Positions 6,109 to 30,659 of a stretch of 30,659 bases of DNA are shown here, piece after piece; position 1 is the first letter of the stretch; each line of letters starts with the position of its first letter. The DNA lies in the IMG/VR virus record IMGVR_UViG_3300037843_000385; one strand, 5' to 3'. The stretch is from a virus. The notes below the pieces were generated by a model. It saw nothing but the letters and a program-made list of their open reading frames with translations, made no database searches and had not been told where the DNA came from. Made by a program: the position numbers and the translations under genes.

Positions 6109-6184
6109 AGGGGAGTAAGATAACCGGCAGTCGGTCGGTCTCCAAAACCGTACAGTGGCGGTTCAAATCCGTCCTCCCCTGCCA
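6109..6184 (+). tRNA. tRNA-Trp (anticodon CCA), CCA encoded
   Basis: Acceptor AGGGGAG/CTCCCCT, T-arm GGCGG-TTCAAAT-CCGTC, anticodon loop CTCCAAA. 76 nt. Confidence 0.6.
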
Positions 6185-6218
6185 AAGTTTTTGAAAGGAA
6201 AGTAGTTACAAGTTCTAT

Positions 6219-6295
6219 GGTGGCGGTCGTCTAGCGGCTAAGACACCTGACTGTGGATCAGGATAGCATGGGTCCGAATCCCATTCGCCACCCCA
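6219..6295 (+). tRNA. tRNA-His (GTG) with G-1, CCA encoded
   Basis: GGTGGCGG...CGCCACCCCA ends match E. coli tRNA-His. Anticodon loop is CTGTGGA. Confidence 0.75.
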
Positions 6296-6314
6296 ATTTT
6301 GAGGAGAGACGTTG

Positions 6315-6390
6315 GTCCGTGTAGCTCAGAAGGAAGAGCACCACGCTCCGAACGTGGAGGTCGCGAGTCCGAGTCTCGCCATGGACACCA
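6315..6390 (+). tRNA. tRNA-Arg (CCG), CCA encoded
   Basis: Acceptor GTCCGTG/CATGGAC, anticodon stem CCACG/CGTGG with loop CTCCGAA, T-loop TCCGAGT. Confidence 0.7.
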
Positions 6391-6394
6391 GTTT

Positions 6395-6601
6395 ATGATG
6401 ACGTTCACGATCAGCGACGAGAAGGCGGCGCAGTACAAGGCGTGGAGCGAAGAGCACCGGAAGACGTGCGGGGCGCGACCGGATATGAGCATGGCCCTGT
6501 ACAGCTTCGTGTTCACGCCGAACGGTCTTGGGGACGGCATATCGGTCAAATGCCCCTGCGGCGAGAGGGTATTCCTCGACGCCGGGGACGAGGATTTATA
6601 G
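6395..6601 (+). CDS. Small protein (68 aa) embedded between tRNAs, CPCG motif
   Basis: The track ORF 6299..6601 starts inside a tRNA. The first ATG after the tRNA, at 6395, gives MMTFTISDEKAAQYKAW... Confidence 0.5.
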   Translation: MMTFTISDEKAAQYKAWSEEHRKTCGARPDMSMALYSFVFTPNGLGDGISVKCPCGERVFLDAGDEDL

Positions 6602-6679
6602 GCGCGTGTAGCTCAGCCGGAATAGAGCGCTATTCTGCGAAGATAGAGGTCGGCGGTCCGAGTCCGCCCATGCGCACCA
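6602..6679 (+). tRNA. tRNA-Arg (GCG), CCA encoded
   Basis: Acceptor GCGCGTG/CATGCGC, anticodon stem CTATT/GATAG with loop CTGCGAA. 78 nt with a 10-nt D-loop. Confidence 0.6.
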
Positions 6680-6687
6680 AGTTTTTT

Positions 6688-6765
6688 GCCGGGCTAGCCA
6701 TTGGACATGGCGGCACGCCTTCGAAACGTGCACGTTTGCGGGTTCGAATCCCGCGCCCGGTTCCA
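6688..6765 (+). tRNA. tRNA of uncertain identity. The perfect anticodon stem GCACG/CGTGC encloses a 9-nt loop, CCTTCGAAA. An alternative 7-nt loop CTTCGAA gives Arg (TCG).
   Basis: Acceptor GCCGGGC/GCCCGGT, T-arm GCGGG-TTCGAAT-CCCGC, CCA encoded. 78 nt. Confidence 0.5.
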
Positions 6766-6775
6766 GGTTTTTTTT

Positions 6776-6853
6776 GCGCCCGTAGCTCAGCGGAATAAGA
6801 GCATTGGTCTACGAAACCAAGGGTCGCGTGTTCGAATCACGCCGGGCGCACCA
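6776..6853 (+). tRNA. tRNA-Arg (ACG), CCA encoded
   Basis: Acceptor GCGCCCG/CGGGCGC, anticodon stem TTGGT/ACCAA with loop CTACGAA. Confidence 0.75.
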
Positions 6854-6857
6854 ACAT

Positions 6858-6944
6858 TGAGGTGTAGGGGAATCGGTAGACCCACCTGGCTGTTACCCAG
6901 GAGCCGAAAGGCACTTGCAGGTTCGAAGCCTGCCGCCTCAGCCA
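6858..6944 (+). tRNA. Type-II tRNA (long variable arm, discriminator G73) with anticodon GTT (Asn codons). Atypical Ser-like/Asn chimera.
   Basis: Acceptor TGAGGTG/CGCCTCA, 3-bp D-stem, anticodon stem CCTGG/CCAGG with loop CTGTTAC, variable arm AGCCGAAAGGCACTT, T-arm GCAGG-TTCGAAG-CCTGC, then G and CCA. 87 nt. Confidence 0.55.
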
Positions 6945-6962
6945 GTTTAGAGGGAGGATTCA

Positions 6963-7294
<332 letters not shown>

Positions 7295-7299
7295 AGTTT

Positions 7300-7374
7300 G
7301 GGTCTGTAATTCAGCGGCTAGAAGCCCTCGCTCTTAACGAGGTAACGAGAGTTCGAGTCTCTCCAGACCCACCA
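7300..7374 (+). tRNA. tRNA-Lys (CTT), CCA encoded
   Basis: Acceptor GGGTCTG/CAGACCC, anticodon stem CCTCG/CGAGG with loop CTCTTAA. Confidence 0.65.
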
Positions 7375-7394
7375 GGCATCTGATAGAATAGGGC

Positions 7395-7796
7395 ATGAAC
7401 AAGAAAGCTCAAGGCACTCGGTCAGTCGGTGCGGTGATGAGCCACTTCATCAAAGCAGGCAAAATCGTCTTGATGCCGATTGGAGACAATGAGCGATACG
7501 ATTTCGTCATTGATGAGGATGGGCGGTTTCGGCGTATTCAAGTCAAAACGGGCAAGGTCAAGAACGGAGCGATAGAGTTTAGTACCGCCAGCACTAATCT
7601 TGAAAACGGTAAGTGGGTGAGACACGGTTATAGGGGACAGATTGACGATTTCGCAGTTTACTGCCCTAAACTCGACAAGGTTTACCTTGTGCCTATAGAC
7701 GAAGCAGGTGGTCAGACACACTGTTCTTTGCGGCTTGAGCCAGCGAAGAACGGTCAACAAAAGGGCATTAGGCTGGCTGAGCAGTACGAGGTTTAG
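7395..7796 (+). CDS. PD-(D/E)xK-type (Hjc-like) nuclease, candidate free-standing homing endonuclease (133 aa)
   Basis: ...ERYDFVIDEDGRFRRIQVKTGK fits a D...(D/E)xK-like core (D, ED, QVK). The gene is visibly lower in GC than its flanks. It sits between two tRNA-Lys(CTT) genes, and its stop overlaps the downstream tRNA by 1 nt. Confidence 0.6.
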   Translation: MNKKAQGTRSVGAVMSHFIKAGKIVLMPIGDNERYDFVIDEDGRFRRIQVKTGKVKNGAIEFSTASTNLENGKWVRHGYRGQIDDFAVYCPKLDKVYLVPIDEAGGQTHCSLRLEPAKNGQQKGIRLAEQYEV

Positions 7797-7871
7797 GGCT
7801 ACTAACTCAACTGGTAGAGTAGCAGACTCTTAATCTGCGAGTTCGGGGTTCGAGTCCCCGGTGGCCCACCA
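7796..7871 (+). tRNA. tRNA-Lys (CTT), CCA encoded
   Basis: Acceptor GGGCTAC/GTGGCCC, D-stem ACTC/GAGT, anticodon stem GCAGA/TCTGC with loop CTCTTAA. Confidence 0.7.
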
Positions 7872-7910
7872 AGTTTCCGGGTATTAGAACTCTTAGGATA
7901 GGAGGTCAGC

Positions 7911-8456
7911 ATGCCCGACGTACTGGTTCTCGACATGAACTACCGCCCTGTCGGCTTCAAGTCCTGGCAGGACGCGATCACGAACGTGTGGAAGGAGCGG
8001 GCCATCGTCGTCAAGGAGGACGAGTCCGGCCTGAAGCTCCACTCCCCGTCGTTCGAGGTCGGGATGCCGAGGGTGATCCGCGTGCGCAACGCCTGGGTGA
8101 AGCGGCGCAAGACATCCGTGCCGTTCTCGCGGCGCAACCTGTACGTCCGCGACGGCGGCGAGTGCCAGTACTGCGGTAGGCACCTCAAGCTGGAGGAGTA
8201 CACCCTCGATCACGTGATCCCGCGTTCGCAGGGCGGCGTGAGTTCGTGGGTCAACATGGTCCTCGCCTGCATGCGCTGCAACAAGCACAAGGCGGGCCGG
8301 ACGCCGCAGCAGGCAGGGATGCCCCTCCTGCACAAGCCCGTCGTCCCGAAGGTGGACGACCCGAAGTACAACTTCAAGCTCCACATCCGCAAGATGCGGC
8401 CCGAGTGGAAAGAATGGGAGAATTTCCTTTACTGGAATATCGAGCTTGACGAGTAG
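7911..8456 (+). CDS. HNH endonuclease (181 aa)
   Basis: Shine-Dalgarno GGATAGGAGG precedes the ATG. Motifs are CQYCG...LDHVIPRSQGG...CMRCNKHK. Confidence 0.85.
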   Translation: MPDVLVLDMNYRPVGFKSWQDAITNVWKERAIVVKEDESGLKLHSPSFEVGMPRVIRVRNAWVKRRKTSVPFSRRNLYVRDGGECQYCGRHLKLEEYTLDHVIPRSQGGVSSWVNMVLACMRCNKHKAGRTPQQAGMPLLHKPVVPKVDDPKYNFKLHIRKMRPEWKEWENFLYWNIELDE

Positions 8457-8468
8457 ATCAAGCGACAA

Positions 8469-8500
8469 GCCCCGGAGGAGCAACCCTCCTCCGGGCGAAA
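8469..8500 (+). terminator. Stem-loop, possible terminator or processing site
   Basis: CCCGGAGGAG-CAAC-CCTCCTCCGGG hairpin after the HNH gene. Only a weak T-tract follows (AAATTT). Confidence 0.35.
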
Positions 8501-8503
8501 TTT

Positions 8504-8581
8504 GGCCCCGTAGCTCAGCGGAATAAGAGCGACGCACTCCTAACGCGTAGGTCACTGGTCCGAATCCAGTCGGGGTCACCA
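8504..8581 (+). tRNA. tRNA-Arg (CCT), CCA encoded
   Basis: Acceptor GGCCCCG/CGGGGTC, anticodon loop CTCCTAA with an A-C mismatch at 31-39, T-loop TCCGAAT. Confidence 0.55.
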
Positions 8582-8594
8582 ATTTTTGAGTTGT

Positions 8595-8668
8595 TGCCTC
8601 CTCGTCCAACGGTAGGACACGGGTCTCTGGAACCCGGTATCGCGGTTCGAATCCTCGGGAGGCAGCCA
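8595..8668 (+). tRNA. tRNA-Gln (CTG), U1-A72, CCA encoded
   Basis: Acceptor TGCCTCC/GGAGGCA, D-stem GTCC/GGAC, anticodon stem CGGGT/ACCCG with loop CTCTGGA. Confidence 0.65.
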
Positions 8669-8675
8669 AATTTGC

Positions 8676-8704
8676 TGGACAATGCCGCGAAAATGCGGTA
8701 TAAT
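8676..8704 (+). promoter_or_regulatory. Promoter TGGACA-N17-TATAAT driving a leaderless transcript
   Basis: Perfect -10 hexamer with 17-nt spacing. ATG lies 7 nt downstream of the -10. Confidence 0.6.
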
Positions 8705-8711
8705 GATCAGA

Positions 8712-8891
8712 ATGAACTCGACGCTGAAGACGATCCTGAAGGCCGCGGCGATAGCGGTCGTGCCGGGGCTGGGCGCTTTCTGGCTGTTAAGCAGGCTCGC
8801 GAAAGAGCACGAGCGGCAGGAGTTCAGGGAGTACATCCGCAAGACCTACGGGAAGGGAAGCAAGTACGAGAACGAAAATGTTGAGCCTTAG
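8712..8891 (+). CDS. Small membrane protein (59 aa), probably leaderless
   Basis: Track ORF 8682..8891 starts upstream of the -10 element. The in-frame ATG at 8712 lies at the predicted transcription start. Hydrophobic segment AAAIAVVPGLGAFWLL. Confidence 0.5.
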   Translation: MNSTLKTILKAAAIAVVPGLGAFWLLSRLAKEHERQEFREYIRKTYGKGSKYENENVEP

Positions 8892-8892
8892 C

Positions 8893-9003
8893 ATGAACGC
8901 GGACACGCTCTTCAACGTCCTCAGCGGCGTTGTGATGCTTCTCTCCGTCTACGCCTTCTACCAAGCCTCCACCTACGACGCAAAGTTCAGAAGAAAACGC
9001 TGA
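8893..9003 (+). CDS. Possible 36-aa membrane peptide (MNADTLFNVLSGVVMLLSVYAFYQ...)
   Basis: ATG 1 nt after the upstream stop. Not in the ORF track (too short). Hydrophobic core and basic tail. Confidence 0.3.
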   Translation: MNADTLFNVLSGVVMLLSVYAFYQASTYDAKFRRKR

Positions 9004-9015
9004 CCCACATCCTGC

Positions 9016-9098
9016 GGGCGCGTAGTCGGGGGAAGCCTCTACCTTCTTAGCCGTAAACGGAACTGAAAATGAGAGTTCGACTCTCTCCGCGCCTACCA
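9016..9098 (+). tRNA. Aberrant tRNA-like element (83 nt): good acceptor, T-arm and ACCA end, but no canonical D-arm or anticodon-arm fold
   Basis: Acceptor GGGCGCG/CGCGCCT, T-arm GAGAG-TTCGACT-CTCTC, then A and CCA. The only 5-bp anticodon-like stem is GGAAG/CTTCT with loop CCTCTAC. There is an extra CCG-TAAA-CGG hairpin. Confidence 0.35.
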
Positions 9099-9108
9099 AC
9101 CTTTTCGG

Positions 9109-9183
9109 GGGCCGCTAATTCAATTGGCAGAAGCGCCGACTTTTAATCGGTTAATCCCGGTCCGAGTCCGGGGCGGCCTACCA
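9109..9183 (+). tRNA. tRNA-Lys (TTT), CCA encoded
   Basis: Acceptor GGGCCGC/GCGGCCT, anticodon stem GCCGA/TCGGT with loop CTTTTAA, T-arm CCCGG-TCCGAGT-CCGGG. Confidence 0.7.
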
Positions 9184-10496: not shown

Positions 10497-11021
10497 ATGC
10501 GAAAAACCCTGCTTTCCTTGGCTTTCAGTCTGCTCTTTTTCGTCGTCCCGGCGCTCGCCCAGCACGGCGGTGGCGGTCATAGCGAAGGCGGCTCACACGG
10601 TGGAGGTTCCCACGGAGGTGGTGGTTCCCATGGTGGGGGTGGCAGTCACAGCGGCGGTGGCTCACACGGCGGTTCCGGCGGGAGCGGACAGCACAGCGGA
10701 GGCAACAACGGCGGTAGTCAAGCTGGCGGACGCGGCGGAGAACAGCATGGCGGCCAGGTTCGCGGATCGGACCATGATCGTTCGGGTCATACATTCAACC
10801 GGGGAGATTTCGGAAGGGAACATTACAGCCATTTCAACCGCGAGGGCGGCAGGTGGTACGGCGGACGCCGCGAGTACTTCTTCGGTGGGTTCTGGTTCTA
10901 CAGCGCGTGGCCCGGATGGTTCTATAGTTGCCCAGTATATTTTGACACCGACTCGTACGGCGATTGGTACATTCACTGCTACGACAACCCCGGTCTCAGC
11001 TTTCAGGTCTTCATCGACTAA
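10497..11021 (+). CDS. Secreted Gly/His/Ser-rich repeat protein with an aromatic C-terminal domain (174 aa)
   Basis: Signal peptide MRKTLLSLAFSLLFFVVPALA. Repeats (GG)GSHGGGG repeated 6 or more times. W/Y/F-rich tail. Confidence 0.7.
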   Translation: MRKTLLSLAFSLLFFVVPALAQHGGGGHSEGGSHGGGSHGGGGSHGGGGSHSGGGSHGGSGGSGQHSGGNNGGSQAGGRGGEQHGGQVRGSDHDRSGHTFNRGDFGREHYSHFNREGGRWYGGRREYFFGGFWFYSAWPGWFYSCPVYFDTDSYGDWYIHCYDNPGLSFQVFID

Positions 11022-11446: not shown

Positions 11447-12159
11447 GCTACCAGAGCGGTCGCACATACGAGGTCTTCGTGGACGGCAAGCCCGTGGGGC
11501 TAGTGGGTAGCACTATGCGTCCCCTTAAACAGAGACGTACAGCAGGTTATGTGAAACGATTCGGACAAAGTGTTGAACTCCGCCTCATCCGCGAGGTTCC
11601 GCGCCACGAGAGCGAGGACGACATAAACTACAACTTCCATCTGAAAGCCGCTGAAGCCTTGGACATCGCTCGGAAGAAAACCTACGTAGAGGACGGTGGG
11701 TTGAACAAGCTATCTCCTCTGATTCAGGCAATGGGGCATCCTATGCTTGAGGCGGAGATGGGAAAAATAGGTGGGCGCATAGGGGGACGTATAGGCGGTC
11801 CTATCGCTATTCGCAAAATATCTCGGGATGCCAAAGTTCGTGGTGGGCGCAAGAGTGGACTTATCCAAGGTCGTAGAAATGCCGAAAGCGGACATATGCG
11901 AGCTTTAGGACTTTCAGGAATCGGCGCACGAATTGGGGGGAAAATCAGTGGACCTGTTTTGGGACGCAAGAATGTTGAGAGCGGACACCTTGCTTATATT
12001 TCAAAAAAGGGCGGTCAGGTCGCTGGGCGCAAAGCCGCCAAAAGCGGACAGCTTGCTCGTACTGCAAGCAAAGGCGGATGTATCAGTACGTGTAAACGCT
12101 GGAACATTGATCGTGGAAAACCATGCATTTGTGGAAAACACTTCAAGGCAGAAGCATGA
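11443..12159 (+). CDS. GIY-YIG-like homing endonuclease with NUMOD3-like repeats and a C-terminal zinc finger (238 aa)
   Basis: N-terminus RTYEVFVDGKPVGLVGST resembles the GIY...YIG motif. GRKNxESGHL / GRKxxKSGQL repeats are present. C-terminus CISTCKRW...CICGKH. GC is lower than the flanks. ATGA overlap with the upstream gene. Confidence 0.55.
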   Translation: MSYQSGRTYEVFVDGKPVGLVGSTMRPLKQRRTAGYVKRFGQSVELRLIREVPRHESEDDINYNFHLKAAEALDIARKKTYVEDGGLNKLSPLIQAMGHPMLEAEMGKIGGRIGGRIGGPIAIRKISRDAKVRGGRKSGLIQGRRNAESGHMRALGLSGIGARIGGKISGPVLGRKNVESGHLAYISKKGGQVAGRKAAKSGQLARTASKGGCISTCKRWNIDRGKPCICGKHFKAEA

Positions 12160-12925: not shown

Positions 12926-13297
12926 ATGAGCTTCACTGGGTTCCTACAGCAATACATCAGGCCCTCCCGCTGGTGGAGACGCCAGAAGACCGTGCAAGTC
13001 ACCGTCTGGCCCCGCTTCCTCGCGCAGGCGCTATGTCCGCACATCCGCAAGCAGATGATCATGTGGGACGTGGAAGCCAAGACCAAGACCAGCATGTGCC
13101 TCGACTGTCACAAGCATGTCACGGAAGTGAACGACTGCGCCCACGGCGAGGTGCGCCCATCCATGTGGGAGACGGCCGACGGGCAGACGAAGCTCGTCCC
13201 CCGTGCCTACCGCTGCGACAATTGCGGCGTGGGGCTTGAGGCGAAAGACCTGCCTTCCGGTGTGATGATCACGCACCTGAACATCGAGACACGCTGA
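12926..13297 (+). CDS. Hypothetical Cys/His-rich protein (123 aa)
   Basis: Motifs CLDCHKH...CAHGE...CDNCG. Complete ORF. Confidence 0.55.
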   Translation: MSFTGFLQQYIRPSRWWRRQKTVQVTVWPRFLAQALCPHIRKQMIMWDVEAKTKTSMCLDCHKHVTEVNDCAHGEVRPSMWETADGQTKLVPRAYRCDNCGVGLEAKDLPSGVMITHLNIETR

Positions 13298-14541
13298 TGG
13301 ACGAACACGACGCGGAGCAATACTACAGACACATGAGAGACGACCTGAAATACCAGTACGCCAACCTCGTGAGGGGCGTGATCTTCGGACAGGCGATAGG
13401 CGACGCCCTTGGGCACCCCATCGAGTTCGAGAAGACCCACAAGGTCGCCGACCTGGCGGACGACAACACGTTCACCGACGACACACAGATGTTCTGCGCC
13501 ATCGGCGAGGCGATGCTGGACGCACCGCCGCACAGGGACACCGACCTGTTCATGGACGCGCTCACCAAGCGTTTCGTCGAGTGGAGGCAGAATCCGCTGG
13601 GCGGGACGCACCGCGCTCCCGGCGGCACGTGCATGGAAGCCGTGCGCAAGCTAGGCACGGGACGCCACTGGCGTCAGACCGGGGCGACACGGGACGGCAA
13701 GGGCAACGGCTCCGCGATGCGTGCGGGGATCGTCGGCGCTCGCTATTGGAAGGAGCCGACCATGGCCTTCAGGATCGGCTGCTTGACCAGCGTCGTCACC
13801 CACAACAACCTTGAAGCTATACTCGCGGCAGGCATGGTCGCTTTCCTTGTTTCTCGTTCGATCCAAGGGTGCGGCTTGTTCGAGGCGGTCGCCGAGGGGC
13901 TTGCCCTCTGCGCGGACTTCGAGAACCAAGTGCCCGACTACCCGACCAACAACCTCCCGTTGAACAACATGCGCGACGGCCAAAGCCCGTGGAAGGCGAT
14001 AGCGAGCTTTTCGCGGGGCTTCATCCTCGGCGAAACGGACATGGCAACGAAGGAGTTCCTCGCCGGGAACGGCGATGATTTCACCGCCGTCCCGGCCGTC
14101 TCCGAGGCGATATTCTTCAATGCCCGGCACGACAACTACGACCCCATGGTCATCGAGTGCGCCAACGCCAGCGACGACTCCGACACCATCACCGCGATCA
14201 CCGGGACGATAGCAGGGGCGCGGTTCGGCTTCGACATGATTAACGCGAACGTCCAAATAGACCGGAGGGACGGGTGGACGGACAGGATCGAGATGCGCGA
14301 TTATCTCGAAGACCTTTCCAAGCGCATCTTCGAGACGAGCCTCGGTGAGGGGGAGATCGAGGAGGCCCGCGCCGCGCATGACATCGACGCCGCCCTCGGC
14401 GAGGAGTACGCGGAGGACGAGGTGACGTTCGAGGACGTGATCGCGGGCAAAATAGCCGACGACGGCGAAGTGCCGGAGGACGAGGTGACGTTCGGGGACC
14501 TTTCCGGCGGCGAGGACCCGGACTGGGAGGTGGAATTCTGA
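13297..14541 (+). CDS. ADP-ribosylglycohydrolase family protein (ARH/DraG-like) with an acidic repeat tail (414 aa)
   Basis: GQAIGDALGHPIEF, TDDTQM, GNGSAMR and DSDTITAITGTIAGARFG signatures. C-terminal direct repeat EDEVTF(E/G)D. Confidence 0.85.
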   Translation: MDEHDAEQYYRHMRDDLKYQYANLVRGVIFGQAIGDALGHPIEFEKTHKVADLADDNTFTDDTQMFCAIGEAMLDAPPHRDTDLFMDALTKRFVEWRQNPLGGTHRAPGGTCMEAVRKLGTGRHWRQTGATRDGKGNGSAMRAGIVGARYWKEPTMAFRIGCLTSVVTHNNLEAILAAGMVAFLVSRSIQGCGLFEAVAEGLALCADFENQVPDYPTNNLPLNNMRDGQSPWKAIASFSRGFILGETDMATKEFLAGNGDDFTAVPAVSEAIFFNARHDNYDPMVIECANASDDSDTITAITGTIAGARFGFDMINANVQIDRRDGWTDRIEMRDYLEDLSKRIFETSLGEGEIEEARAAHDIDAALGEEYAEDEVTFEDVIAGKIADDGEVPEDEVTFGDLSGGEDPDWEVEF

Positions 14542-15269
14542 TGGAAACGCTCTTGAACGGCATCATAAGCGCTCTGGCAGCTATGGTCGCACCCGGCGTG
14601 ACAACCAAGCAACTCGACGAGCAGGCGGAGCGCCTGTGCGCCGTCCACGGTGTCAAGCCCGCGTTCAAGGGCTACAAGCCGCCCAACTTCGGCAAGGAGG
14701 AGGGCTTCCCGAACGCGCTCTGCGTCTCGATTAACGAGGAGGTCATCCACGGCATTCCGTCCGACAGGCAAATAGTCGAGGGGGACGTTGTAAAATTGGA
14801 CATGGGGATCGAGCAGGACGGGCAGTTTGACGATGGTGCGACAACCGTGCTCGTCGGTGATATAGACCCGAAGACTGGGCATATCCTCGGCACGTCCGCG
14901 ACAGCGCGAAAGCTCGTGAAGGCGACAAAGGAAGCATTGGACGCCGGAATCGCGCAAGCGAAAGCCGGGAAGACCACGCACGACATCGCAGCCGTCGTCG
15001 AGGCGGTTGCGAAAAAATACGATGTGCATGTTATCCACGGCTACGGCGGGCACGGCATTGGGGAACAGCTTCACATGGAGCCGCATATCCCGAACGAGGT
15101 CGCTGGCGAGGCGGCCCCAGTAAAGCTTGAGAAGGGCATGCGTATCGCCATCGAGCCGATGTTCGGCTCGAATCACGGATTCACGCAAGTAGCGAAGGAT
15201 GGATGGACGGTGAAGCTCCGCAATGGGGGCCTCGCCGCGCACTTCGAACAGACAGTCACCATTGAGTGA
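14541..15269 (+). CDS. map: Methionine aminopeptidase, type I
   Basis: FPNALCVSINEEVIHGIP, GDVVKLDMG, HGYGGHGIG, IAIEPM and HFEQTVTI match the MetAP-I metal-binding signatures. Confidence 0.9.
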   Translation: METLLNGIISALAAMVAPGVTTKQLDEQAERLCAVHGVKPAFKGYKPPNFGKEEGFPNALCVSINEEVIHGIPSDRQIVEGDVVKLDMGIEQDGQFDDGATTVLVGDIDPKTGHILGTSATARKLVKATKEALDAGIAQAKAGKTTHDIAAVVEAVAKKYDVHVIHGYGGHGIGEQLHMEPHIPNEVAGEAAPVKLEKGMRIAIEPMFGSNHGFTQVAKDGWTVKLRNGGLAAHFEQTVTIE

Positions 15270-20864: not shown

Positions 20865-20894
20865 TGGACATTTTTCTAGCCTCCGCTGTATACT
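20865..20894 (+). promoter_or_regulatory. Promoter ACTGGACA-N18-TATACT (copy 1 of a conserved promoter module)
   Basis: Shares ACTGGAC and GCTGTATACT with the copies at 24777 and 29475. Confidence 0.6.
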
Positions 20895-20918: not shown

Positions 20919-23234
20919 ATGAAATTCGTAGCTGAGAAGTCGCCTACCATTGCCCACGGCATGCAGGAAAGCCGGGCGTTCCATTTCGAGTTCAACGAAA
21001 CGATGTTCAGGATGTTGTCTAGCACCACGTACTCGGACCCCATTCGCGCGGTCATCCGCGAGCTTGCCTGCAATTCATCTGACGCCCACGAGATGGCAGG
21101 AACGCAGGACAAGCGCTTCGAGATTCACCTTCCCACCACGCACGAACCCGAGTTTATCATCCGCGACTACGGCGTGGGGATGGACGACGAAGAAATCAAC
21201 GACCTCTTCACTATGTACGGCGGATCGAACAAGCGCGGCGACAATCGCACCATCGGTGCTCTCGGCATCGGCTCCAAGTCGCCATACGCCTACACACAGA
21301 TGTACAACGTCATCACGACCAAGAACGGCGTGACCCGCACCTACGTGGCGCACGTCCAAGACGGCATGCCGCGCCTGACGCCTGATAAGGTCTGCGAGAC
21401 GCCGGACGCGCCGAACGGCGTGACCGTGCAGTTCTCCGTCAAGGAAAAGGACATTTGGGAGTTCGAAAACAAGGCGAAGATTGCCCTCGAATTTTTCGAG
21501 CCTATGCCGGAAGTCAACACCCCCAATTTTATTCCGCACAAGCAGACTTACATCCTCAAGGGCGACTCCTGGGGTCTGCGTAAGGAAGCGCGGACTGCGG
21601 CGCACGGCTTCGCGTGCCGCGCCATCATGGGCAAGGTGCAGTATCAAGTCGGCGGAATCGACGAAAGCCGCACCAATTCCCTCCAGCGCAAACTTCTGGA
21701 GATGCCCATCGACATGCACTTCCCGCTCGGCGCTCTGGAGTTCGCGACGTCCCGCGAGACGCTCCAGCTTTCGGAGAAGACGGTTGCCGCCGTTCTCGCG
21801 ATGTGCGACAAGATCGTCGGGGAAGCCATCCAGACCGTGAAGGACAAGATCGACGCCTGCAAGGACGTCTGGGAAGCGCAGGTCCTCCTGTTCTCGTTGC
21901 TCAACCAGACATCCAACACCTACTCCGGCGGCTCCGGCATGGGCGGTCTCATCAAGGAGGCGCTCGACAAGGGCAGGCTGTACGGACAGTACAAGAACTT
22001 CACCCTGTGCGAGTCTAAGGCCGTGATCAGCATGCTGGCGTATAGCCACATCAATGTGACCAAGTTCGAGTACAACAGCCGGGCGACCAAGCGTTCCAAC
22101 AAAGAGCCGTTCATCGCGACCGATCCAAAGGCCCTGCGCGGGGACAAGAAGCTGGCGAAGACGACCGGCGATCCGCTGGTGATTGCCCGCAACCGCTACG
22201 AGGTCACCGTCCGGCCGGACGTGCTGTTCGTGGTCAACGACACAAGATTCCCTGGCGACAAGTACATCCATATGCTCCTCCAAGAGAAACAGAACGGCGT
22301 GCCTTCCCCTAAGCGCGAAGTGTACCTAATCCACAAGCCGAAGAGCGAACCGGATACTGACATCGCCGTGGCGGTCAGGAACGCCAAAAAGCTGATCTCC
22401 GACATCGGTAACCCCCCGGCCAAGCTGATGTCCGAATTGGTCGCCGAGTACGCCCCCGTCTTCGCGGCGCGACGCCCGACAGGTTCCACTCCCAAGACGC
22501 GGCAGATCGCCGTGCTCGTGAACGCGCTTGGCGACCGCCGCCGTTGCAACCAAACGGGCTGGGGCAAGGCGTGGCGCTCCCCGACCGAGGAAGAGATCGC
22601 ACGCCCCGGCAAGAAGTATTATGTCGCCATCGAGAAGCTGGTCGCGATAAACGCTGGGTTTGACGACGCCTGGGACCTGCGCGAGTTCGTGGACAACGTC
22701 GTCGCGTCCGGCAAGTTCGGCATCGCCAACAACACTCCGGTCTACGGCGTGAAGAAAAACCACAAGGCGCTCAGGGAAAACGACGGCGAATGGGTCGAGC
22801 TTATCCATCACGTGTACAGGTGCGTAAGCGAGATCATGACGCCGCAGAAGACGCTGGCACTCAGCCTGTACCTGACGCCGTTCAGCGACGACTGCGCCGA
22901 CCTGCTCAGCCACCTCGCGAGCAAGCAGCCGCTCACCAACAGCCCGGCGCAGATGTTCGCCGTGGCATTGGACGAGGCGAAGGGCATCAGGATCAACAAC
23001 TGGAGCAACTTCAAGTGGGTGCTCAACCTGTGCGAACGCCGGGGCAAGTACACGCCGGGCGCGACAGCGGACTTCAACAAGAAGTGGCAGCAGGTCAAGG
23101 CTGGCTACCCCATGCTCCAGTTCGTGGGCAGTTACAACATCCGCAGCAACATAAAGACCCTGGTGGACTACATCCGGCAGGTGGACGAGCAAAATTCAGA
23201 AGCCGCGTGCGCAGCAGCGGCATCTAACCAATAG
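20919..23234 (+). CDS. rIIA: rIIA-like protein (N-terminal GHKL/HATPase_c fold), 771 aa
   Basis: FRMLSSTTYSDPIRAVIRELACNSSDAHE corresponds to T4 rIIA FKILSS...IRAVVRELITNMIDAH. DYGVGMD and GALGIGSKS are GHKL G1/G2 boxes. Followed by rIIB. Confidence 0.85.
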   Translation: MKFVAEKSPTIAHGMQESRAFHFEFNETMFRMLSSTTYSDPIRAVIRELACNSSDAHEMAGTQDKRFEIHLPTTHEPEFIIRDYGVGMDDEEINDLFTMYGGSNKRGDNRTIGALGIGSKSPYAYTQMYNVITTKNGVTRTYVAHVQDGMPRLTPDKVCETPDAPNGVTVQFSVKEKDIWEFENKAKIALEFFEPMPEVNTPNFIPHKQTYILKGDSWGLRKEARTAAHGFACRAIMGKVQYQVGGIDESRTNSLQRKLLEMPIDMHFPLGALEFATSRETLQLSEKTVAAVLAMCDKIVGEAIQTVKDKIDACKDVWEAQVLLFSLLNQTSNTYSGGSGMGGLIKEALDKGRLYGQYKNFTLCESKAVISMLAYSHINVTKFEYNSRATKRSNKEPFIATDPKALRGDKKLAKTTGDPLVIARNRYEVTVRPDVLFVVNDTRFPGDKYIHMLLQEKQNGVPSPKREVYLIHKPKSEPDTDIAVAVRNAKKLISDIGNPPAKLMSELVAEYAPVFAARRPTGSTPKTRQIAVLVNALGDRRRCNQTGWGKAWRSPTEEEIARPGKKYYVAIEKLVAINAGFDDAWDLREFVDNVVASGKFGIANNTPVYGVKKNHKALRENDGEWVELIHHVYRCVSEIMTPQKTLALSLYLTPFSDDCADLLSHLASKQPLTNSPAQMFAVALDEAKGIRINNWSNFKWVLNLCERRGKYTPGATADFNKKWQQVKAGYPMLQFVGSYNIRSNIKTLVDYIRQVDEQNSEAACAAAASNQ

Positions 23235-23243
23235 GAGAATTCT

Positions 23244-24620
23244 ATGGAACGGCTTAGCTATGTGCTGAAACCCGAGAACCTGTCGGTCGCGGTGACCGAC
23301 CCGCAGACCAAACTGCCTGTCTGGAAGACGATGCACTCAACGCACGTGTCGTTCAAGAGCATCGTCCGGGCGCTCAAGCGCGAGGACTGGGCGAAGGCTG
23401 TCCGCCTGTTCGACACAGCGCAGCTTATCGCCGACAAGTCGCAGGGTCGCGTCCAGGTGCGCAAGGACGGCGTGTTCTACAACGGCACGAAGATCGACAA
23501 CTCCCTGACCACACGCATCCTCCAGCTTATCAAGGAGGGAAAGCCCGTGAGCAAGATGCTCAAGTTCATGGACAGGCTCTACGCAAACCCCTCGCAGACC
23601 GCCATCGACGAATTGTATGACTGGCTGAACGGCTGCAAGCTGCCCATCACCGATGACGGCCGCTTCGTTGCATACCGCCGCGTCAAGAGCGACTACAAGG
23701 ACGTCTACACGGGCACCATCGACAACAGCCCCGGCCAGGTCGTGTTTATGAAGCGCTCCGACGTCTGCCCCAACCGCCACGACACGTGCGCACGGGGCCT
23801 GCACTTCTGCTCCATCGCATACCTGTCGAACTACCCCGGCGACCGCATCATGCAAGTGGTCGTTGACCCCGCCGATGTCGTGAGCATCCCGAGCGACTAC
23901 CAGTACACCAAGGGGCGCACGTGGCAGTACGAGGTCGTGAAGGAAATCCCTCGCGATCAGATCGACGACCTGCTCGACCGGGGCACGGACATCGACGACT
24001 ACCGTGTCGCCGTGTACAGCATCGCGAATGACCGCAAGAAGCTTCTCGCGGAAGTCCTTGCGCTGCCTCTCGTCAAGAAAATGCTACGGCAGGCGAAGAA
24101 GGCCCGCCGCGTGAAGCGCGGCCGCAAGTCGAAGGACGCCGCGTTTATTGTTTCCGAGAAGAGCATCCGAAAGATGACTATCGGACGCTTGGCCGCGCTG
24201 TACTCGATGTACGCGCCGCCGACGCCCGCTACCGTCTCGCAGGGTGCGTTCATCGACCCGGCCACCGGGTACAACCGCCTATTCGTGCTGCGGAAGTCCT
24301 ACGGCTTCTCTCGCGGCCAGGTCGCCGACAAGATGAAGCTGAGCTATGGCACCGTGGCGAACTACGAGAAGGCACGCTCGCTGCCGCAGGCGACCATCGA
24401 CGATTACATGGATGCGGTCATGCGCCTGACGCGCCTCGGCGCGACCGACGAAACCGGGCTGTCGCTTCCGAAGCCGACGCAGAAAAGGCGTGCGGCTGCG
24501 GCGGGGGCGGCAAGTAGCTACGAAGATAAAGCTGACGCAGACTTCGTTGAGGATGAAGAGAGCATGGGCGACGAGTTTGGCTATGGCTACACGGACGAGT
24601 CCGACTACGAAGAGGTCTAA
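23244..24620 (+). CDS. rIIB: rIIB-like protein with a C-terminal HTH-like extension (458 aa)
   Basis: DTCARGLHFCSIAYL...VVDPADVVSIPSDYQYTKGRTWQYEVV matches the T4 rIIB core TCSRGLHVCSKSY...VHPRDVVSIPIDYNDAKMRTCQYEVV. Shine-Dalgarno AATAGGAGAA. Confidence 0.85.
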   Translation: MERLSYVLKPENLSVAVTDPQTKLPVWKTMHSTHVSFKSIVRALKREDWAKAVRLFDTAQLIADKSQGRVQVRKDGVFYNGTKIDNSLTTRILQLIKEGKPVSKMLKFMDRLYANPSQTAIDELYDWLNGCKLPITDDGRFVAYRRVKSDYKDVYTGTIDNSPGQVVFMKRSDVCPNRHDTCARGLHFCSIAYLSNYPGDRIMQVVVDPADVVSIPSDYQYTKGRTWQYEVVKEIPRDQIDDLLDRGTDIDDYRVAVYSIANDRKKLLAEVLALPLVKKMLRQAKKARRVKRGRKSKDAAFIVSEKSIRKMTIGRLAALYSMYAPPTPATVSQGAFIDPATGYNRLFVLRKSYGFSRGQVADKMKLSYGTVANYEKARSLPQATIDDYMDAVMRLTRLGATDETGLSLPKPTQKRRAAAAGAASSYEDKADADFVEDEESMGDEFGYGYTDESDYEEV

Positions 24621-24676
24621 CTTCGCAGCACAGAGATAGGGGCACCCCTTCTTCGCAAAGAGGAAATGCCCCTGTA

Positions 24677-24742
24677 GCCGGGAAGTCCCTCACTGTCAAC
24701 GTCTCTCTAACGCTTAGACAAAGGCTTCCCGGCTTTATTTTT
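24677..24742 (+). terminator. Rho-independent terminator (preceded by a second hairpin at 24638-24671)
   Basis: GCCGGGAAG...CTTCCCGGC stem followed by TTTATTTTT. Confidence 0.65.
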
Positions 24743-24776
24743 GGATGCAAGTTGTTGATTACAGGTTGGATAAAAC

Positions 24777-24806
24777 TGGACATTCCAGGTCGGTCGGCTG
24801 TATACT
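24777..24806 (+). promoter_or_regulatory. Promoter ACTGGACA-N18-TATACT (copy 2) plus a conserved 5'UTR
   Basis: The 30-mer CGGCTGTATACTACGGGTGGAGGAAACGAG (24795-24824) is identical to 29493-29522. Confidence 0.65.
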
Positions 24807-24827
24807 ACGGGTGGAGGAAACGAGAAC

Positions 24828-25742
24828 ATGGCAAAGCAGACCAAAACCAAGACTCAGACAGCGGCTCCTGCCACTGAACCGAAAATCAAGATCAATCCTG
24901 CTGTCGAAACCCCCGCAAAGCAGACCACTGTCAAGTCTGTCTGGAAGGGCTACCTCTCGGCGTTCGGTATCCTGACCGTGCCTGTGAAGGCTTACAAAGC
25001 GACGGACATTGACGGAATCGAGCGCAACATGTACCACAGCACCGATTGCGTGAACCGTCTCAAGTACCAAGACATGGTCTGCTCCGGTTGCGGCGCGACC
25101 GTGCCTGACGCGAGGAAAAACGCCCTGTACGGCGTCACCGTTGACGGCAAAATTGTGTTCGTTACTGACGATGAAATGAAGGCTCAACAGCCCTCGAAAG
25201 ACGGCGCGATCAGCATCACCGAATTTGTCCCCGCCGAGTCCGTCGAACCCATCTACTACGAATCAACCGAATATCTTGCATGCGGCGAGGCTACTCCTCA
25301 GCTTCAAGAGGCTTACGCCAACTTCCGCGAAGGGCTGATGCTCAGCGGTCGCATCGCCATCGGTCGAGTCGTGAGCCGTGGTCACGAGTATACCGTCGCC
25401 ATCCGCCCTCACGGCAATGCCATGCTGATGAGCTACCTGTTCGCGGAGTACGAAATTCGGAACTGCGACAAGTTCAGCGCGACCGCAGCGAACCCGACGT
25501 ATGCCCAAGTTTTTGCTGGACTCATGAGCGAATCTGACTTCGCCAAGGATAAGTTCACCCCGGCAGATTACGACAGTTGCCTCAAGAACCAGCGTGCGAT
25601 GATAGCCAAGAAGGCGGCGGGCCAGACCGTAGAATGCCCGAAGCCGCAAGAACAATCTGCTACGGCGGAAGATGTGCTATCTGCTCTCAAGGCGATGCTT
25701 GAAGTCTCTAAAAAGGCGAAGGCTGCTGCGGCTGGCAAGTAA
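24828..25742 (+). CDS. ku: Ku (NHEJ DNA-end-binding) homologue with an inserted zinc ribbon and a Lys/Ala-rich tail (304 aa)
   Basis: SVWKGYLSAFGILTVPVKAYKA is the bacterial Ku N-terminal signature. CVNRLKYQDMVCSGCG is a zinc ribbon. C-terminus KKAKAAAAGK. Confidence 0.8.
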   Translation: MAKQTKTKTQTAAPATEPKIKINPAVETPAKQTTVKSVWKGYLSAFGILTVPVKAYKATDIDGIERNMYHSTDCVNRLKYQDMVCSGCGATVPDARKNALYGVTVDGKIVFVTDDEMKAQQPSKDGAISITEFVPAESVEPIYYESTEYLACGEATPQLQEAYANFREGLMLSGRIAIGRVVSRGHEYTVAIRPHGNAMLMSYLFAEYEIRNCDKFSATAANPTYAQVFAGLMSESDFAKDKFTPADYDSCLKNQRAMIAKKAAGQTVECPKPQEQSATAEDVLSALKAMLEVSKKAKAAAAGK

Positions 25743-25766
25743 GTTAATTTTCAAAAAGGAGAATGC

Positions 25767-26054
25767 ATGGACGCTCGATCTTACAGCCACGAATTTGGTC
25801 TTGAACCCGACAGGCGAATCAGCGTCGGCACGCTATACTCGAACGCCGGGCCTCAGCCGCCCCGGCCGTCGTACAGCCACGACTTTAGCTCCGACCCTGC
25901 GATGCAGTTCGTGCCCTTCACCAGTCCCGCGCAGGCATCGCCCGACGCTCCGGCTCCAGGCGTTTCGCGCCTATGCCCGGAATGCCGCAAGCCCCGGATG
26001 ATATTCAAGGGAGACAAGTGCTTGAAGTGCGGCATAGACGCGGGGAGCCTCTGA
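25767..26054 (+). CDS. Pro-rich protein with a C-terminal zinc ribbon (95 aa)
   Basis: Shine-Dalgarno AAAAGGAGAATGC precedes the ATG. Motifs CPECRK...CLKCG. Confidence 0.55.
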   Translation: MDARSYSHEFGLEPDRRISVGTLYSNAGPQPPRPSYSHDFSSDPAMQFVPFTSPAQASPDAPAPGVSRLCPECRKPRMIFKGDKCLKCGIDAGSL

Positions 26055-29474: not shown

Positions 29475-29504
29475 TGGACGTTCTCTACTCCCCGGCTGTA
29501 TACT
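29475..29504 (+). promoter_or_regulatory. Promoter ACTGGACG-N18-TATACT (copy 3) plus a conserved 5'UTR
   Basis: The 30-mer at 29493-29522 is identical to 24795-24824. Confidence 0.65.
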
Positions 29505-29524
29505 ACGGGTGGAGGAAACGAGCG

Positions 29525-30211: not shown

Positions 30212-30659
30212 TGAAAAATGAACTGACCTACAGTCTGGCAAAGAGATTTGTGGACAACTACAAAGGCATCAACGACCCCACGAGCCTGAACTACTGTGAC
30301 AGTCACGCCATCGTCTGGCTGGAAGACCAAGCGAGAAAGTATGGCTACGACCGCATCTCCACGATGAACGCCGCCTGCCGCATCTTCATGCGGAACAACA
30401 AGCCAGCGAAGAGGGGCAAGAAAATCCGCATCGAGATCGTGAAGTACATGGCCAAGTGGGGCGCGTTCGCCAGCGGCGAGTCCGAGATGTACCGCGCCGA
30501 CCTCGTCGGGGCGAACGGCAAGCGGCAAACCCTGCCGGACACCCGAGCGTGTTGCACCGAGTACGAAGGCAACCCCGAGCGTAAGTACGCCGAGCAGATC
30601 GCCAAGATTTGGGCCGGACTTCTCGGATGCCAGATCGTCTCCGTAGACAAGACCAGAAA
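30211..30659 (+). CDS. Hypothetical protein, 3'-truncated at the window end
   Basis: TAATG overlap with the upstream gene. The ORF MKNELTYSLAKRFVDNYKG... stays open to the end of the window. Confidence 0.55.
   Translation, partial: MKNELTYSLAKRFVDNYKGINDPTSLNYCDSHAIVWLEDQARKYGYDRISTMNAACRIFMRNNKPAKRGKKIRIEIVKYMAKWGAFASGESEMYRADLVGANGKRQTLPDTRACCTEYEGNPERKYAEQIAKIWAGLLGCQIVSVDKTR

Follow-up and report, generated by a model that had tools for sequence, protein, structure and literature searches.

Identification of a phage-encoded Ku

We analyzed 30,659 nucleotides (nt) of viral DNA (IMG/VR record IMGVR_UViG_3300037843_000385; hereafter the window), which carry a gene for the DNA end-binding protein Ku. 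The gene and its parts are as follows:

24828-25742, plus strand: Ku gene, 304 amino acids (aa) and stop; family, structure and fold matches
24828-24932, plus strand: N-terminal extension, residues 1-35, rich in Lys/Thr/Ala/Pro; clade comparison
24936-25502, plus strand: Ku core (beta-barrel and bridge), residues 37-225; PF02735, TIGR02772 and fold matches
25035-25091, plus strand: putative metal-ligand set H70 (25035-25037), C74 (25047-25049), C85 (25080-25082) and C88 (25089-25091)
25503-25739, plus strand: C-terminal arm, residues 226-304, three helices and the basic tail KKAKAAAAGK

An initial annotation of the window had recognized a phage-encoded Ku by a diagnostic motif. This motif, SVWKGYLSAFGILTVPVKAY, is indeed present at residues 37-56 of the product of the open reading frame (ORF) at 24828-25742, and the family assignment was confirmed by matches far beyond chance. 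The protein scored 88.6 bits (E 6.3e-25) on PF02735, the Ku70/Ku80 beta-barrel, for which the cut-off is 25, and its residues 46-225 covered profile positions 2-185 of 190. It likewise matched phrog_4873 ("Ku-like DNA end binding") at E 1e-30 over residues 36-301, and the solved bacterial Ku chains 9vnq, 9i91 and 8v53 in the PDB at E 1e-18 to 1e-19. The bacterial Ku equivalog TIGR02772 aligned residues 37-290 with profile positions 2-258 of 259 (148.1 bits, E 3.2e-43). A Pfam scan at E values up to 1 returned PF02735 only, and no Gam family.

The structural comparison gave the same answer. An AlphaFold2 monomer model, built from an alignment of 60 sequences, had a pLDDT of 86.2 and a pTM of 0.70, and its best Foldseek matches were the bacterial Ku structures 9vnq, 9ig8, 9i91 and 8v53 (E 7e-13 to 3e-10, probability 1.00), with eukaryotic Ku70/80, including human, ranking next. 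Taken together, these results demonstrate that ORF 24828-25742 encodes a bona fide Ku. Homology predicts a homodimeric ring threaded by the ends of double-stranded DNA.

A putative metal site at the Ku bridge

The initial annotation also described a CxxC-N14-CxxC zinc ribbon inserted into this Ku. We found no such element: the region contains three Cys residues and a single CxxC, arranged as H70-x3-C74-x10-C85-x2-C88. Nor is the segment an insertion, being collinear with cellular Ku, longer by 3-4 residues, and aligned with it at the ligand positions. H70, C85 and C88 correspond to His35, Cys48 and Cys51 of Mycobacterium tuberculosis Ku, which a cryo-electron microscopy (cryo-EM) paper presents as a possible site of coordination between the protomers, located at the Ku bridge (PMC12658125). 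The Bacillus subtilis Ku paper and a second mycobacterial Ku structure paper mention neither zinc, nor cysteines, nor metal. Among the 60 aligned Ku proteins, the positions equivalent to 70/74/85/88 displayed the following patterns:

H-C-C-C: 25 sequences
H-C-C-D: 18 sequences
H-C-C-E: 1 sequence
All four replaced (E/Q/D/S, T/S/D or gap, S/A/D, T/S): 16 sequences

The four positions were kept or lost jointly, with no intermediate patterns, and the full H-C-C-C set was present in all 22 members of the phage Ku clade described below, the window's included. Joint retention or loss marks a metal site that is real yet dispensable and that came from cellular Ku. We therefore regard H70, C74, C85 and C88 as a putative structural metal site at the Ku bridge that was inherited from cellular Ku, rather than as an added DNA-binding module; metal binding itself is predicted from the alignment. 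The all-or-none pattern in turn lends support to the idea that the possible metal site in the cryo-EM map of M. tuberculosis Ku is a real, ancestral and dispensable structural feature.

Matches of residues 82-105 to TraR/DksA zinc fingers (E ~0.006) were far below the cut-off and were taken as noise. Separately, three related proteins (P0006, P0011 and P0026) contain true insertions of 10-29 residues between the equivalents of H70 and C74, and that of P0026 holds extra Cys pairs (PCPKHGFPQCTNC...). An inserted zinc knuckle may thus exist in a few relatives, as opposed to the window Ku.

An architecturally distinct lineage of phage Ku

A database search returned 25 related cluster representatives (P0002-P0026) with 34-64% identity to the window Ku, and then cellular Ku with at most 33%. 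The window Ku and the 21 of these representatives that were aligned make up the clade set of 22. In a neighbor-joining tree these 22 proteins were monophyletic, and apart from both M. tuberculosis Ku and Omega gp206, the Ku of a mycobacteriophage.

The clade differs from cellular Ku at both ends. The Lys/Thr-rich N-terminal extension noted in the initial annotation is real and occurs in 22 of 22 clade members; in the window Ku it spans ~35 aa, with 7 K, 8 T and a net charge of +4. Its median length is 36 aa in the phage clade compared to 2 aa in cellular Ku, while the tail beyond the conserved C-terminal helix has a median of 12 aa compared to 43 aa. Clade extensions keep a MAK(K) start, and P29 and K31 of a TPxK motif (T28-K31) are invariant among close relatives (alignment A2). 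Modeled confidence rises along the extension (pLDDT of 51, 63 and 83 for successive ten-residue blocks), residues 1-20 being of low confidence; the fair confidence of residues 21-36 hints that this part packs on the Ku core. We considered whether the extension might be a relocated basic DNA-binding tail, and ruled this out because its net charge varies from -3 to +5 across the clade.

At the other end, the model places helices of the C-terminal arm at residues 223-235, 250-263 and 283-302. Residues D282, L287, A289 and L291 occupy conserved columns of alignments A1, A4 and A5 and align with the D250-V259 region of M. tuberculosis Ku, the minimal C-terminus, and the tail past residue 292 has 13 aa and a charge of +3. 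In M. tuberculosis Ku the minimal C-terminus is enough to stimulate ligation, and the LigD ligase domain is bound by the core (PMC9638933).

The extension-bearing clade was found on phage-like metagenomic contigs only, of up to 463 kb. Deposited phage genomes (50,697) yielded 87 similar records, 86 of them mycobacteriophages and one a "Bacteriophage sp.", none above ~32% identity. A pattern-based scan with alignment A2 found no Ku of this phage type in 185,579 species-representative genomes of GTDB. Scanning IMG/VR with the single Ku protein gave no match; the IMG/VR relatives were found with A2, a closer alignment used since alignment A1 was too divergent to seed the scan. Earlier records of phage Ku are confined to mycobacteriophages and one Streptomyces phage, along with the distant Mu Gam family (PMC11936186). 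These findings establish an independent, architecturally distinct and previously undescribed lineage of phage Ku. Its hallmarks are the N-terminal arm, the short tail, the complete H-C-C-C site and the repeated association with a minimal ligase (see below), and it represents a second, independent phage Ku lineage with a fixed position in what is probably the early region of a large or jumbo phage family known from metagenomes only.

Transcription unit of the Ku gene

Between the upstream rIIA-rIIB unit and the Ku start codon lie four elements:

24676-24743, plus strand: terminator-like hairpin (GCCGGGAAG...CUUCCCGGC) with U-run, ending the rIIA-rIIB unit; RNA fold
24751-24758, plus strand: conserved GTTGTTGA box, ~20 nt upstream of the -35; recurrence in relatives
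24777-24806, plus strand: sigma-70-like promoter, -35 TGGACA (24777-24782), 18-nt spacer, -10 TATACT (24801-24806)
24813-24817, plus strand: ribosome-binding site GGAGG, 10 nt before ATG; sequence reading

The conserved promoter reported in the initial annotation withstood this analysis. TGGACA-N18-TATACT matches 10 of 12 consensus positions, and the element occurs three times in the window, ahead of Ku, ahead of rIIA (20865-20894) and ahead of the DnaJ unit (29475-29504); promoters of the same type precede Ku in three related contigs (L012, L016 and L011; contigs with homologous loci are given L numbers throughout). Moreover, a 30-nt exact repeat comprising the -10, the leader and the ribosome-binding site occurs at 24795-24824 and again at 29493-29522, implying shared transcriptional and translational control of the Ku and DnaJ units. 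The second copy heads a unit of an 86-aa ORF and DnaJ.

The RNA fold of 24621-24745 had an energy of -46 kcal/mol (z -3.1), and 0 of 200 shuffles were equally stable. Upstream of Ku, L010, L014, L015 and L016 have similar ...CCGG(C)TTT-T-rich tails, the leader GGTGGAGGAA is kept in L001, L002, L010 and L014, and the GTTGTTGA box or (T/C)GTTGA stands at the equivalent place before Ku in L001, L002, L010, L012, L013, L015 and L048. The box is not enriched across the window (2 matches vs 0.86 expected). Such GTTGTTGA-like boxes might bind a regulator or belong to the promoter as a second element.

Because the hairpin and U-run separate rIIB from the Ku promoter, and because this layout of terminator, promoter and leader recurs in related phages, Ku heads its own transcription unit. 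Its start codon is sound, as the ATG is preceded at 10 nt by GGAGG and relatives keep the N-terminal peptide. The host-type (sigma-70-like) promoter, which is also used for rIIA-rIIB and the DnaJ unit, suggests that Ku is probably made early after infection.

The phage and its possible host

The window has a G+C content of 59% with nearly all genes on one strand. Directly upstream of Ku lie an rIIA-like gene (20919-23234, 771 aa) and an rIIB-like gene (23244-24620, 458 aa), an arrangement that recurs in L010, L012, L014 and L048. Another conserved block, comprising an M24 peptidase, a 607-aa protein, Ku, a 163-aa protein and DnaJ, is kept in L001, L002, L013, L015 and L016. The window also contains a DnaJ-domain gene, 13 tRNA genes (6109-9183) and, at 13297-15269, an ADP-ribosylglycohydrolase (PF03747, E 7e-49) followed by an M24 metallopeptidase (PF00557, E 3e-37). 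Contigs that carry related Ku genes, from IMG/VR and from metagenomes, measure 70, 86/133, 102, 191, 244, 454 and 463 kb, and exact copies of parts of the window were present in at least six metagenome assemblies. The phage itself occurs in peat or soil samples (JGI 3300009616 and 3300038423; ENA ERZ27250039, ERZ27249783 and ERZ27249776; Logan SRR13021902). With 25 kb of window sequence as query, megablast gave only a tRNA match among deposited phages and nothing near-identical. A cellular origin of the gene was rejected, since the rII genes, the tRNA array, the PHROG matches and the IMG/VR relatives all speak against it. The carrier is a large uncultured tailed phage.

Several further features of this genome deserve mention. 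The tRNA array specifies five Arg (four different anticodons plus CCT), three Lys, two Asn and one each of Trp, His and Gln, with small ORFs in between. At its C-terminus the rIIB homolog carries additional sequence that weakly matches helix-turn-helix domains (residues 345-385, under the Pfam cut-offs), and its tail is very acidic. Among the jumbo-sized relatives with an M24 peptidase upstream of Ku, the ADP-ribosylglycohydrolase was matched in L002 and L015 only. Short tandem-like direct repeats lie inside ORFs at 10566-10672 (a Gly/His/Ser-rich unit, 69 nt apart) and at 11770-11875 (a Gly-rich unit, 72 nt apart).

Two hints bear on the host. The sole cultured-phage match of the 607-aa protein, at 35% identity, was to Tunturiibacter phage Tunturi_5, a jumbo phage of 309 kb with 58.4% G+C and 43 tRNAs whose host belongs to the Acidobacteriota (PMC11924767), and the nearest cellular Ku proteins (~31% identity) come from Thermoanaerobaculia genomes assembled from metagenomes. 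These matches weakly suggest an acidobacterial host. If so, a host LigD is plausible, because conventional non-homologous end joining (NHEJ) shows enrichment in Acidobacteria (PMC7719229).

Genes downstream of Ku and linkage to a minimal ligase

Two ORFs follow Ku:

25767-26054, plus strand: ORF of 95 aa, Pro-rich, with C-terminal CPEC-x11-CLKC; called as a gene on L003-L006
26054-26578, plus strand: ORF of 174 aa with a basic C-terminal tail, its start overlapping the previous stop (TGATG); called on L003 and L004

The initial annotation described the first as a Pro-rich zinc-ribbon protein and the second as basic-tailed, and it suggested that they could be partners of Ku. The Pro-rich composition with the CPEC-x11-CLKC end and the basic tail were confirmed. 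Neither has a Pfam, an NCBIfam or a significant PHROG match, and tblastn found no homologs in L001, L002, L010-L016, L018, L040 or L048. They are therefore not conserved Ku partners, having no homolog beside Ku in the related loci searched, and they are specific to the window phage and translationally coupled to Ku. The 95-aa ORF additionally has two SYSH[ED]F copies, 31 residues apart, ahead of its CPEC-x11-CLKC knuckle pair.

The initial annotation also held that Ku is not accompanied by a ligase. This is true of the window, in which we found no ligase, polymerase or phosphoesterase match, but it does not describe the relatives. Six related contigs (L001, L002, L014, L015/L040, L016/L018 and L048) carry an ATP-dependent ligase of 261-278 aa on the same strand, 3-9.5 kb downstream of Ku and beyond DnaJ. 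These minimal ligases match PF01068 (E 1e-10 to 1e-15) and retain the lysine-bearing EK(H/F)NG motif; their best NCBIfam matches, all far below cut-offs, were PRK08224, TIGR00574 (generic) and TIGR02779 (NHEJ, LigD ligase-domain). A literature search on a Ku-like protein with a ligase in metagenomic phages found nothing. In a separate observation, the N-terminus of the protein encoded at 8-772 of the window matches the major-vault-protein shoulder domain (PF11978, E 5e-8), and homologs lie near the ligase in L033, L039, L045 and L047.

Near-identical contigs show two haplotypes of the window phage. The closest relatives of the window are L029 (78-83% nucleotide identity, a 436-kb contig), in which the ligase lies ~5.7 kb past DnaJ, and L025 (84%), which does not reach DnaJ and has the ligase between the 174-aa gene of a module and a 114-aa gene; the 114-aa gene immediately follows the ligase in both. 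Contigs L004 and L009 are 99.95-99.97% identical to the window and continue into this module, with five genes (174 aa, 133 aa, 159 aa, a SET-domain protein and 157 aa) collinear with L029. In L007 and L008, a 153-aa gene is followed directly by the 114-aa gene, and the whole module of 5-6 kb is absent (L007 1960-2000 vs L004 6390-6470; L029 5107-10886; L025 76-5315). The last 20 nt of the window (30640-30659), which ends at the breakpoint, match L007 and not L004, so the window belongs to the haplotype that has no ligase module at this site. We infer, rather than see, a ligase-bearing counterpart, because L004 stops ~1.8 kb short of the position of the L029 ligase; among the metagenome contigs scanned with the ligase alignment, identity to the sequence past the end of the window reached at most 84%.

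The linkage raises the question of whether Ku and the minimal ligase form an autonomous two-component system that repairs breaks made by restriction, CRISPR or other nucleases as a counter-defense. Their location on one strand in the same early-gene block of six related contigs fits such a system, as does the ligase itself, which has little beyond the ligase domain and counts a LigD ligase-domain model among its weak NCBIfam matches. Furthermore, the core of M. tuberculosis Ku and its minimal C-terminus act directly on an isolated ligase domain (PMC9638933). However, 3-9.5 kb lie between the two genes, which are adjacent in no case; the ligase could be replicative, we saw neither a polymerase nor a phosphoesterase partner, and the co-occurrence may only reflect the shared ancestry of one phage family. 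The window haplotype retains Ku without the ligase module at the syntenic site. This and the non-adjacency argue against an obligate phage Ku-ligase pair, and we consider an autonomous system unlikely. We view with similar reserve a broader scheme in which very large soil and peat phages would possess their own end-joining kit, a Ku with a clade-specific arm and a stripped-down early ligase, for resealing nuclease breaks, with gain or loss of the module switching between self-sufficient and host-dependent joining.

Absence of the module from the window haplotype, as far as it can be seen, and of any ligase from the window would instead suit a mechanism of the Omega/Corndog type, in which the incoming genome, with its short cohesive ends, is circularized by host LigD that Ku has recruited, Ku being needed only then. 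Omega and Corndog Ku co-opt host LigD, and no role of a full-length phage Ku other than circularization has been studied by experiment (Pitcher et al. 2006, via PMC4351075 and PMC12848934). The window Ku retains the LigD-contacting C-terminal arm, and the weakly suggested host phylum is the one noted above for its enrichment in conventional NHEJ. Against this, the relatives are very large rII-bearing phages of 190-463 kb. Phages of this kind usually package by headful or terminal-repeat mechanisms and need no end-joining. Most of the relatives possess a ligase of their own, and the window Ku, at 27-30% identity to Omega Ku, falls in a separate clade. On balance, we judge circularization of this type to be quite improbable for the window phage.

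Proposed role of the phage Ku

We lean towards a role for Ku as an early protein that caps and bridges phage DNA ends, with joining left to whichever ligase is available. Ku would be made early, from the host-type promoter. Its ring would then cap and bridge the ends of linear phage DNA, or breaks within it, and capped ends would keep out end-dependent exonucleases of the host, as with Mu Gam. Ends held in this manner could be sealed by the minimal ATP-dependent ligase encoded in the same early block in most relatives, or by host LigD or LigA in the window haplotype, which apparently lacks the module. The minimal C-terminus retained in Ku and the ligase downstream of it in relatives hint at competence for joining.

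Several observations temper this proposal. The TIGR02772 score of the window Ku is 1.9 bits below the curated cut-off of 150, though the alignment runs end to end. Ku is kept in an L007/L008-type haplotype without the ligase module at that site, Ku and ligase are in no case adjacent, and the minimal ligase could serve replication instead. The hints to the host are weak as well.

Some of the same evidence could be read as pointing to a simple shield, in which Ku, like Gam, blocks exonuclease loading at ends and has no part in joining. The early-type promoter is compatible with a shield, Ku persists in the haplotype without the ligase module, and there is precedent in Mu Gam, which blocks RecBCD (PMC12407980). 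Nevertheless, the window protein does not belong to the Gam family, and it has kept the whole C-terminal arm with its ligation-stimulating region, which a simple shield would not need. The retained C-terminus and the recurrent ligase linkage thus argue against a mere shield, which we regard as very unlikely.

Should capping or rejoining of phage ends by Ku prove correct, the protein would join the phage end-binding proteins that shape sensitivity to RecBCD and to defenses that sense ends, Gabija among them (PMC12407980).

Comparison with known systems

The window Ku shares its core fold with bacterial Ku, to which it aligns over its full length (M. tuberculosis Rv0937c, 8v53/9i91/9ig8; B. subtilis YkoV, 9vnq). 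It also has the N-terminal strand motif, the metal-ligand positions and the minimal C-terminus in common with these proteins, and its short basic tail is close in length to that of M. tuberculosis Ku. In contrast to bacterial Ku, it is phage-encoded, has only 25-33% identity to them, bears the ~35-aa extension, which nearly all cellular Ku lack, and the full H-C-C-C set, and has one extra residue in the first strand (S-A-FG). Moreover, unlike the Ku of bacterial two-component NHEJ, its gene is not beside LigD, and the 30.7-kb window contains none.

Among phage proteins, the likeness to Omega and Corndog Ku proposed in the initial annotation holds as an analogy and fails as kinship. As with Omega gp206 and the Corndog-type Ku of cluster O, which in mycobacteriophages are annotated as "Ku-like dsDNA break-binding protein," the window Ku is a full-length phage Ku without an adjacent ligase. 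However, its identity to Omega gp206 is 27-30% and it occupies a separate branch of the tree; Omega Ku has no N-terminal extension and displays the actinobacterial H/D/C/C pattern, so that the window Ku differs in both. The carriers are likewise dissimilar. The Omega/Corndog type comprises siphoviruses whose genomes measure 70-113 kb and have 4-base cos ends (PMC4351075), whereas the lineage of the window phage is rII- and tRNA-rich, with relatives of up to 463 kb and relatives that encode a ligase.

Mu Gam, a phage-made, Ku-related end-binding dimer, is the functional analogy that we favor for the window Ku. The two differ in family, as the window Ku matches PF02735 only and gives no Gam match. 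Gam is also much shorter and without a C-terminal arm. Gam dimers stop the loading of RecBCD (PMC12407980) and, according to the same source (its reference 33), Gam can promote joining by a host ligase.

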